Of a stretch of 64,000 nucleotides of DNA, positions 20,043 through 21,297 are shown one piece after another; position 1 is the stretch's first letter, and every line of letters starts with the position of its first letter. This DNA is from an uncultured Phycisphaeraceae bacterium. GTDB lineage: Bacteria > Planctomycetota > Phycisphaerae > Phycisphaerales > UBA1924. The stretch is from the NCBI GenBank assembly GCA_964352615.1, contig CAYGSG010000007.1:2315-66314 (forward strand). Direction: 5' to 3'. The notes beneath the pieces were generated by a model, which did no database searches, was not told the DNA's origin, and saw nothing but the letters and a program-made list of their open reading frames with translations. The position numbers were made by a program, and so were the translations under genes.

Positions 20043-20297
20043 CTATTCCAAAGTGTCGCGATCAAGCCATGTTGAAGGGTCGGAAAGTAGTTGCCCCAAC
20101 ATGTACCGACAGGCGCCTAGTTCGGTCCTAAATGCTCTCTTGCCTTTCTCATGCCCACGCTCACTGTAATACACGCTCCAGCCGGCAGCTGAATGAGATA
20201 ACACATAACTTTCGCTGGGATGACCTCCTTTCAGTGAATAACTCGATGGGTCAATCATGTGCGATTCTAGTTGCTCAATGAGAACGTTTTTGTTCAA
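20043..20297 (-). CDS. candidate immunity protein for the adjacent TNT-type toxin
   Basis: 84-aa ORF whose TTG start overlaps the toxin stop (TTGA). An alternative ATG lies at 20258. It is small, acidic and cytoplasmic-looking (…GWSVYYSERGHEKGKRAF…), and the DNA is A/T-richer. Confidence 0.5.
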   Translation of the reverse strand: MNKNVLIEQLESHMIDPSSYSLKGGHPSESYVLSHSAAGWSVYYSERGHEKGKRAFRTELGACRYMLGQLLSDPSTWLDRDTLE

Positions 20298-21297
20298 GGG
20301 GCTCTCCTCGACAAGTGCTCCGAATCAATAAGATTGGACACAGAATCAGCAAGCATGTATTGTATGCCGAGTACTGGCTTGCCAAATGCTGGGGCAGTAA
20401 GTCCGGCTTGAACACCAATCGGGCGATTGACTTGGTACGCATTGTATGTTTCATTTCCGTAGGGTCGCAATGCTCTCGCTTCGAGTGGCGTGCCTTCTGG
20501 CGAAGTAAATCTGCCGCGCTCGAGACCAAACCGATCTACAACAGTGCCTGGTTCGAGAGTTATCTGCTTCCTGAAGCCGAGGAAAAATCCATCGGATTCG
20601 GGCCACGGCGATAGCGACAGGCGTTTGTTAGCCGCGATTGTGTCTAGTGGCACATTGTGAGGCCGTCTGACGAAGCCCCGACACTTCTGCGTCGCACTCC
20701 CGAGCTTGGTCACCTGCGTGCCCGGAAGCAATGCCGTGCCAAAGTCAAATATGCCGTCGCCAATGGTGGTGAGGTCTCCATCGAGGACACGCTGGCCCCA
20801 GTCATTGAAACCGTCACGAACAGCCGTGCCGGTATCTGCTGCAAATCGGCCGGGGTCTTCAGCGAGCATCCGAGCTGCGTTGAGCGTGCCCGATTCTTGT
20901 TGGCCCGCTTCTCTGAGTGCATCCGGCACGCCAGGCGTAATTGCAGCGGTCGTCGCCGCAATTTCTTGCCCTAGATTCCACGCTGATTCGCCAGCCCTCG
21001 CAGGCTGCCTACCCAGACCAAGTGCGGCCTCGCCCGCTACGTAGATCGAATCCTTAATGAAGCCCTGCGAAGTTCCGTCAACACCAAAAGCTCGTCCCAC
21101 GAGCGTGTTCTCGAACGCCCAACCATCGGGGTCCCCCATCAGCCCCAAGGGATTGATGAGGCTTGTCGGCATGCCGTTGACGTAGCTGTAGAGGTTCATG
21201 CCATCGGCGTAGCCAATGGGGTCTCGCTGGAACCACCGCCCGAGTTCGGGGTCGTAGACGCGGTGCCGCACGCAATAGGTGCCGAGCTCGGGCGGGC
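20294..21297 (-). pseudogene. orphan RHS-family C-terminal fragment carrying a TNT-like NAD+ glycohydrolase toxin domain
   Basis: It starts inside the RHS core end (…ELGTYCVRHRVYDPELGRWFQRDPIGYADGMNLYSYVNGMPTSLINPLGL). The C-terminus EPGTVVDRFGLERGRFTSPEGTPLEARALRP…YNAYQVNRPIGVQAGLTAPAFGKPVLGIQY matches the TNT/DUF4237 pattern as I recall it. No RHS repeat body lies upstream. The track ORF is 20294-21271. Confidence 0.75.

Follow-up and report, generated by a model that had tools for sequence, protein, structure and literature searches.

Poole et al. in 2011 and Koskiniemi et al. in 2014 are said to have described orphan rhs-CT/rhsI modules in Escherichia coli, Salmonella and Dickeya. These are 5'-truncated genes that start in the end of the Rhs core, continue into an A/T-rich toxin tip and are followed by an immunity gene. 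The same layout is found in the DNA analyzed here, a window of 64,000 nucleotides (nt) from an uncultured Phycisphaeraceae bacterium (assembly GCA_964352615.1, contig CAYGSG010000007.1, positions 2,315 to 66,314). In this window, an open reading frame (ORF) of 325 amino acids (aa) runs from an Rhs core end into a TNT-type NAD+ glycohydrolase (NADase) domain, and an 84-aa candidate immunity gene follows it, next to the remnant of a tyrosine integrase and a transfer-messenger RNA (tmRNA, ssrA) gene. We consider, with a probability of roughly 60%, that the locus is the deletion remnant of an Rhs polymorphic-toxin gene in an ssrA island, and that its immunity gene may still protect. The locus differs from the orphan rhs-CT/rhsI modules in several ways: no main rhs gene precedes it, and its homology to the resident rhs genes is too low to be usable. 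It also has a shorter core stub, with the Asp of the release site changed to Asn, it is located at the edge of an ssrA island and fused to an integrase remnant, and its host is a planctomycete of the Phycisphaerae without a type VI secretion system (T6SS).

Three other groups of systems are close to this locus. First, the TNT domain of CpnT from Mycobacterium tuberculosis (PDB 4QLP) and the fungal AfNADase (6YGE) share with our toxin the Pfam family PF14021, the fold and the DRxG/xRxL/Q residues. As in the CpnT TNT/IFT pair, the toxin would be neutralized by the product of the neighboring gene, a prediction made here from linkage. However, the toxin in the window is borne by an Rhs protein, whereas CpnT is an outer-membrane channel and AfNADase a secreted fungal enzyme, and the 84-aa partner is similar to IFT neither in sequence nor in fold. 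Second, acquired interbacterial defence (orphan immunity) islands were reportedly found in Bacteroidales by Ross et al. in 2019. Like these islands (on orphan immunity, see PMC10470768), the order of our host shows immunity genes that persist or move on DNA with an integrase although no usable toxin goes with them, as in the lone gene of genome G140 described below. Unlike them, the window has a single gene with a toxin tail attached and no immunity array, and its protective role is a prediction. Finally, the T6SS pairs Tse6-Tsi6, Tne2-Tni2 and the Rhs-borne Tne5-Tni5 likewise combine interbacterial NAD(P)+-depleting tips on PAAR or Rhs carriers with dedicated immunity. The fold of our toxin matches T6SS NADases distantly (4zv0_A and 6b12_A, E 1e-4 to 7e-4), but it belongs to a different NADase family, its immunity family is unrelated, and the lack of a T6SS in the genome separates it from these pairs as well. 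TNT has been found to cluster apart from the Tne1-5 NADases (PMC13285283).

The toxin ORF

The toxin ORF is composed of three parts, listed here with the ORF itself.

20294-21271, minus strand: toxin ORF, 325 aa, GTG start at 21271 (from the ORF list; the stop-to-stop frame is open to 21346)
21140-21292, minus strand: Rhs core-end remnant (…PELGTYCVRHRVYDPELGRWFQRDPIGYADGMNLYSYVNGMPTSLINPLGL), TIGR03696 positions 26-76
20609-21139, minus strand: linker or pre-toxin region, residues 45-221 (about 175 aa), nearly unique and without a Pfam match
20297-20608, minus strand: TNT-type NAD(P)+ glycohydrolase domain, residues 222-325 of the 325-aa ORF, recognized by PF14021, fold and catalytic residues

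An initial annotation, made from the DNA sequence alone, had placed a TNT domain at the end of this ORF and proposed a PF14021 search. The search gave a strong match (E 4.4e-25; 88.4 bits, with a cut-off of 27) that covers positions 1-87 of the 88 in the profile and residues 238-322 of the protein. The catalytic residues are all present: D246 and R247 of the DRxG motif, F255, R266 of the xRxL motif, and Q304. In phmmer alignments with PDB chains, R247, F255, R266 and Q304 fall on R129, F137, R148 and Q194 of AfNADase, of which R129, F137 and Q194 are essential by mutagenesis (PMC7955114). In our toxin, the mycobacterial TNT motifs DRXG and QRXL (PMC6398120) read D246-R247-F-G and A-R266-A-L, and the catalytic residues are invariant or near-invariant in two family alignments (A1 and A3). 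Furthermore, an AlphaFold (AF2) model of residues 211-325 (pLDDT 85) was found by Foldseek to have the TNT fold, matching AfNADase (8pms/6yge, TM 0.80-0.82, E 8e-10) and the M. tuberculosis toxin chain 4qlp_B (E 1.2e-5). Tse6, an Rhs1 C-terminal domain and Tne2 were among the more distant matches. Two near-invariant TNT positions show drift: the G of GxPG(L/G)G has become V, and G98 has become E. The TNT domain is complete, and the predicted NAD+ glycohydrolase still looks active.

At its other end the ORF opens inside an Rhs core end, as had also been proposed. The Rhs-associated core profile of NCBIfam, TIGR03696, matches with E 8.8e-16 but covers only positions 26-76 of 76. The core portion left in the ORF amounts to 47 residues, and the open frame begins a mere 18 codons 5' of the Rhs homology. 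The first Rhs motif is retained as RDPIG. In the second one, of the DPxGL type, which reads INPLGL, the catalytic Asp is replaced by N40 (21152-21154), while Asp occupies the equivalent position in 15 of 15 other Rhs ends sampled from the host order. In Photorhabdus Rhs1, the change D1338N abolished C-terminal cleavage and toxicity (PMC8636562). The remnant is not a complete Rhs core domain, that is, one covering TIGR03696 with two DPxGL-type motifs and the catalytic Asp in the second. Upstream of the toxin ORF there is neither a YD-repeat shell nor an N-terminal trafficking region, and Rhs-like, PAAR-like or secretion-related genes are missing, in agreement with the initial annotation; the integrase remnant and the tmRNA gene are there instead.

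The linker between the core remnant and the TNT domain was reached by just a few of 2261 TNT hits (P0025, 36%; P0066, 34%). It is 29-40% identical to the post-cleavage regions of orphan modules in genome G098 of the same order, which bear other toxin tips, and it contains a GDG…G..PGT…KLG-like motif. This resemblance and the motif suggest that the linker may be a pre-toxin or translocation domain common to these toxins and missed by Pfam.

Rhs genes in the genome and in the order

In form the locus is an orphan module: homology to the core end is followed by a C-terminal toxin region and then by an immunity gene. It might then be a reserve, retained so that its toxin/immunity tip can be swapped by recombination with a full-length rhs gene, as in the enterobacterial orphan rhs-CT modules. 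Two full-length rhs genes are indeed present in the genome (contigs C4 and C13). Rhs core ends occur in 96 of 151 genomes of the order, several of which carry 9-15 copies, and arrays of orphan Rhs modules are common in the order, e.g. at locus L155 (G098:C2:167000-186000). We nevertheless regard a reserve function as very improbable. The locus is 5'-truncated, has core-end homology and is followed by its presumed cognate immunity gene, but it is on a different contig from the rhs genes and not downstream of a main rhs gene with identity high enough to recombine. The closest DNA match of the core remnant to any rhs gene in the genome is just 73% over 77 nt. The full-length rhs gene with an identical core end that the initial annotation had suggested as a partner was not found in the genome, nor was any near-identical core end; the assembly is 95% complete, so a partner outside it is conceivable. 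In addition, orphan-sized Rhs frames (250-800 aa) in the order mostly begin at TIGR03696 positions 12-13 and ours begins at 26, and about 150 core residues are kept in the orphan modules that were read in G098, against 47 here. Any recombinant would also inherit N40, the change that abolished cleavage and toxicity in Rhs1 (PMC8636562). Of the two fates that the initial annotation had offered for the fragment, the reservoir module thus loses ground on the 73% match, the 47 core residues and N40.

The integrase remnant and the tmRNA gene

Three features were recorded in the DNA upstream of the toxin ORF.

21601-21947, minus strand: tmRNA (ssrA) gene found by ARAGORN, on the same strand as the toxin/immunity cassette and upstream of it
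21290-21663, plus strand: 3' remnant of a tyrosine integrase, about 124 codons, which converges on the tmRNA 3' end and overlaps it
21286-21292, no strand: junction of the Rhs remnant (minus) and the integrase remnant (plus), where the two homologies overlap by at most about 7 nt

Read from about 21286, the plus-strand integrase frame gives ARAGVPQRQAMVLARHTDPRLTANIYTD…. Pfam and NCBIfam gave nothing for the stub, even at E 10, and tblastn inside its own genome gave merely marginal matches. When 201 genomes of the order were searched with the 44-aa stub, however, 65 had frames of 400-530 aa with a matching C-terminus, the best one being in G047 with 95% identity. The 440-aa ORF of G047 is a Phage_integrase (PF00589, E 1e-19) and likewise converges on the tmRNA 3' end and overlaps it. 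This agrees with the earlier claim that the toxin fragment abuts a tyrosine-integrase stub on the other strand, but the dimensions given then had to be corrected. The DNA of the window and that of G047 are 74% identical over 21290-21708 (about 420 nt), running through the tmRNA end, and the remnant is collinear with residues 317-440, approximately, of an intact 440-aa relative. The remnant therefore has about 124 codons and not 38, the well-conserved end of the catalytic domain making up just its first 40 codons or so. The Rhs homology stops at P19/E20 of the open frame (21292-21287), and the integrase homology to G047 begins at 21290 in the DNA and at 21286 in the protein (ARAGV), which moves the junction from 21297/21298 to 21286-21292.

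The tie between the stub and the adjacent tmRNA gene was absent from the initial annotation and is added by this analysis. In both the window (21601-21663, plus strand) and the G047 locus L032 (10276-10338), the integrase frame runs antisense, without a stop, over the last 63 nt or so of the tmRNA (…WSRGESNPRP…). Since the frame crosses the tmRNA end in both, the C-terminal tail of the integrase is encoded by the core of the attachment site. An intact ssrA island of about 7.5 kb is present in G047 (L032, G047:C1:1603000-1618000, positions 2784-10383, approximately), bounded by a 26-nt direct repeat that is identical to window 21599-21624. Its cargo comprises a Rep_trans gene, a HerA helicase and SIR2_2 pair, a combination known from anti-phage defence, as well as the 440-aa integrase. 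Comparison with a close relative also places an island at this site. Genome G001, of the same genus, is 88-90% identical to the window across mechanosensitive-channel genes and the tmRNA gene up to 21599. The similarity vanishes exactly at the tmRNA 3' end, where G001 has a Tad pilus cluster. The window thus shows two marks of an ssrA island, a tyrosine integrase beside the tmRNA 3' end and a break of synteny with a close relative.

The locus may have arisen as follows. An island would have integrated at the tmRNA 3' end, with its integrase read toward the tmRNA and its rhs gene read the opposite way, the 5' ends of the two genes facing each other. A single illegitimate deletion joined at 21286-21292, where the overlap is at most about 7 nt, would then have taken the 5' three quarters of the integrase and left of rhs only the last 47 core residues and what follows them. 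The integrase, read rightward, and the rhs tail, read leftward, both lack their 5' parts, and a single deletion is therefore the simplest explanation. The initial annotation saw the cassette as grafted head-on onto the stub; we prefer to see two genes, each without its 5' part, that one deletion in an ssrA island left back to back. The other flank would have been eroded by insertions of insertion sequences (IS) and further deletions. Without a YD shell, an N-terminal trafficking region or a working release site, and in a genome without a T6SS sheath gene, the toxin could presumably not be delivered, and its tail would be a hitch-hiking, still-intact remnant. The immunity gene would be the sole part with a plausible present function, guarding against TNT-type toxins from related cells. 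As a product of polymorphic-toxin turnover the locus is nothing unusual, but both of its breakpoints are defined to a few bases, which makes it a clean example.

The 84-aa gene and its family

Two features were recorded at the 3' end of the toxin gene.

20043-20297, minus strand: candidate immunity gene, 84 aa, TTG start, overlapping the toxin TGA by 4 nt (TTGA)
20304-20308, minus strand: Shine-Dalgarno-like AGGAG, read from the sequence, 6 nt 5' of the immunity TTG and within the last toxin codons

The 4-nt overlap with the toxin stop had been noticed in the initial annotation and taken for a toxin-immunity arrangement, and the genes that accompany TNT toxins elsewhere bear this out. In our family search, the ORFs just 3' of the toxin gene in 80 TNT-encoding loci from reference genomes were compared with the 84-aa protein. 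A homologue was found directly 3' of the TNT gene in 58 of these loci, with 30-52% identity and phmmer E-values down to 5e-20. Its spacing from the toxin stop is mostly -3 to +9 nt. The hosts belong to at least seven phyla (Actinomycetota, Acidobacteriota, Bacillota, Bacteroidota, Spirochaetota, Pseudomonadota and Planctomycetota). TNT toxins accompanied by this family include those of the Bacillus cereus group, Photorhabdus, Streptomyces and many uncultured lineages, and TNT-linked homologues are also present in genomes of the same order as our host (G025, G101, G115 and G178). The family consensus is …YSL.GG.P.E.Y.L…W.VYYSERG…F..E..AC.Y.L, and the near-invariant positions (Y20, W40, R47, G48, F56, E59 and A62) are all kept in the 84-aa protein. 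A word-indexed protein search with the 84-aa query had returned only the query itself. This null is due to the requirement for exact 5-residue words, and a real absence of homologues was rejected once the neighbors at TNT loci revealed the family. Those refuting conditions of the initial annotation that could be checked thus did not come true: the TNT match is strong, the catalytic residues are there, and the small ORF is conserved.

No described immunity family was found to include the 84-aa protein. Pfam and NCBIfam gave no meaningful match for it or for any of 39 family members, and a profile of the 39-member family against PDB gave nothing at E < 0.6. The AF2 model (pLDDT 85) has an alpha-beta3-alpha arrangement for which Foldseek returned no match at E < 0.2, and the 4qlp (IFT) chain was not among the 50 best matches. 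The comparison with immunity families that had been proposed was thus negative, and similarity in sequence or fold to the IFT-type immunity factor (Rv3902c family) was not seen. Public records label the family members just 'hypothetical protein'. A survey of 2024 found IFT in Actinomycetota only and left open how TNT producers elsewhere protect themselves (PMC11187862), and DUF4237 and NADase are not mentioned by Zhang et al. 2012 (PMC3482391).

Since the family sits right after TNT genes in many phyla, the 84-aa protein is very probably the cognate immunity protein of the toxin. We also hold it to be quite probable that it defines an immunity family against TNT-type NADase toxins that is widespread, has no name yet and is unrelated to mycobacterial IFT, Tsi6 and Tni2. 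In at least seven phyla, this family would serve TNT tips whose carriers are Rhs proteins or of many other kinds, at times being tandem-fused and at times travelling alone on integrase-bearing elements.

Several variants of the gene were observed. Two immunity domains lie in one frame of about 210 aa directly after the TNT gene in G025 (G025:C1:1033520-1034092) and G151 (G151:C3:83108-83683; loci L151-L154, L149 and L153); as read from its sequence, this frame is a putative tandem-fused immunity protein. At locus L060, a 987-aa ORF downstream begins with the same immunity domain. Within our order, G101 has a full Rhs-TNT gene and a 53%-identical immunity gene, followed by an orphan. In G115, the Rhs end and the TNT domain are broken and the immunity gene is intact, while G098 has an immunity fragment only. 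In G140, a lone family member of 79 aa precedes, by 40 nt, an integrase of 518 aa that belongs to the family of the window stub (L159, G140:C1:4727000-4734500, positions 5635-7470). This element also has an 836-aa primase/helicase-like gene, and no TNT toxin was detected near the immunity gene. Its place beside an integrase, with no TNT toxin nearby, suggests that immunity may be mobile alone.

Flanking DNA, composition and sampling

Downstream of the cassette, the window contains fragments of three genes.

19747-20033, plus strand: 3'-terminal fragment of a second IS transposase, ending about 10 nt from the immunity stop (frame …HYHEERPHQGLGN…YRREAA*)
19450-19746, plus strand: internal fragment of an IS3-type transposase, residues 87-186 (PF00665)
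18524-19042, minus strand: C-terminal fragment of an AcrB-type RND pump, 172 aa (PF00873 positions 858-1020 of 1021)

What appears to be a single 'rve' ORF (19394-19975) is a chimera of the two IS fragments, which are in different frames and joined at 19746/19747, one being an internal piece of an IS3-type OrfB and the other the 3' end of another transposase gene. The first (19450-19746) is 89% identical in amino acids to the intact transposase at window 5722-6630. The second (19747-20033) is 80-82% identical in DNA to a transposase gene that occurs three times on contig C13, a contig that also carries a full-length rhs gene. Between the RND tail and the IS3 fragment, about 400 nt (19043-19449) contain no assignable ORF and show no similarity elsewhere in the genome. 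The left side of the window also has a serine recombinase, a helicase and an intact IS3-type element.

The A/T-richness pointed out in the initial annotation is real and graded: the GC content is 47.8% in the immunity gene, 52.1% in the TNT domain, 60.2% in the linker and 62.8% in the core remnant, against 64.7% in the genome. The GC content at third codon positions (GC3) is 0.47-0.48 at the cassette and 0.77-0.85 in host genes. A resident full-length rhs gene shows a like drop, with a GC3 of 0.53 in its C-terminal tip and 0.85 in its body. The toxin C-terminal region and the cassette were found in none of the 24 same-genus and same-family relatives searched (24/24). The locus is also present in seven other assemblies of one run series, which are 100% identical over the shared stretches of window 18000-23000 (about 1 to 5 kb each). 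Being identical, they reveal neither polymorphism nor an alternative arrangement.

Expression and selection at the cassette

The immunity gene is co-oriented with ssrA and located about 1.3 kb downstream of the ssrA 3' end, and in a simple scan no terminator-like hairpin was found between ssrA and the cassette. The tmRNA gene is highly transcribed. Gene callers make the toxin start at 301 or 325 aa, and no recognizable Shine-Dalgarno-like sequence is present 5' of either the GTG (21271) or the ATG (21199). This lack of a ribosome-binding site is what would be expected if the deletion were recent and the toxin tail and immunity gene were silent, unselected and simply too young to have decayed. 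A scan for sigma-70-like promoters, at chance level (2 found, 0.9 ± 1.2 expected), points the same way, as do the clonal population, the first drift at N40 and at the two TNT positions, and the decay of such cassettes in G115 and G098. Such a neutral history is the first in likelihood among the alternatives, but we consider it unlikely. The immunity gene retains every near-invariant family position and a well-spaced AGGAG. It also follows ssrA on the same strand, and no terminator-like hairpin was seen between ssrA and the cassette. Moreover, the immunity genes of G115 and G140 outlive their toxins or travel without them, which suggests that they are selected.

The next alternative in likelihood is a toxin-antitoxin-like addiction pair. 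Here, a cytoplasmic NADase would be made from an internal GTG or ATG and checked by the immunity protein, and the pair would stabilize this chromosomal region. The open 325-codon ORF, the intact catalytic residues, the translational coupling of the immunity gene through the 4-nt overlap, the possible read-through from ssrA and the starts chosen by gene callers are in its favor. We find it improbable, since the Shine-Dalgarno-like sequence precedes the immunity gene and neither toxin start, 44 Rhs residues of no use would be part of the product, nothing hints at an unstable antitoxin, and TNT toxins elsewhere are the ends of exported proteins. The recombination reserve discussed above ranks last.

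Several points weigh against our preferred reading of the locus as an ssrA-island deletion remnant with a possibly protective immunity gene. The single-deletion scenario is inferred from geometry, and among the integrase and Rhs hits no relative with this integrase divergently beside an rhs gene was evident. A distal repeat of the tmRNA 3' end was looked for in both the contig and the genome and not found, which leaves the extent of the island undefined; its far border may have eroded or may lie past the end of the contig. The non-syntenic flank includes ordinary-looking genes, e.g. photolyases. Both genes could be silent, and conversely the fully open toxin ORF and its intact catalytic residues would also fit an expressed toxin. 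The immunity function is deduced from gene linkage, for a protein whose predicted fold is unlike any known immunity protein. Finally, the seven identical assemblies leave no polymorphism by which to gauge purifying selection.

Implications for TNT immunity

Within one order, the full gene of G101, the tail in the window, the broken toxin and intact immunity gene of G115 and the lone immunity gene of G140 form a series, which illustrates how immunity genes can outlive their toxins and travel without them. The small gene found here is a handle on an uncurated family that accompanies most of the sampled TNT NADase toxins. If its proposed role is true, the family would explain the self-protection of many TNT producers outside the Actinomycetota, the question raised by the 2024 survey (PMC11187862).

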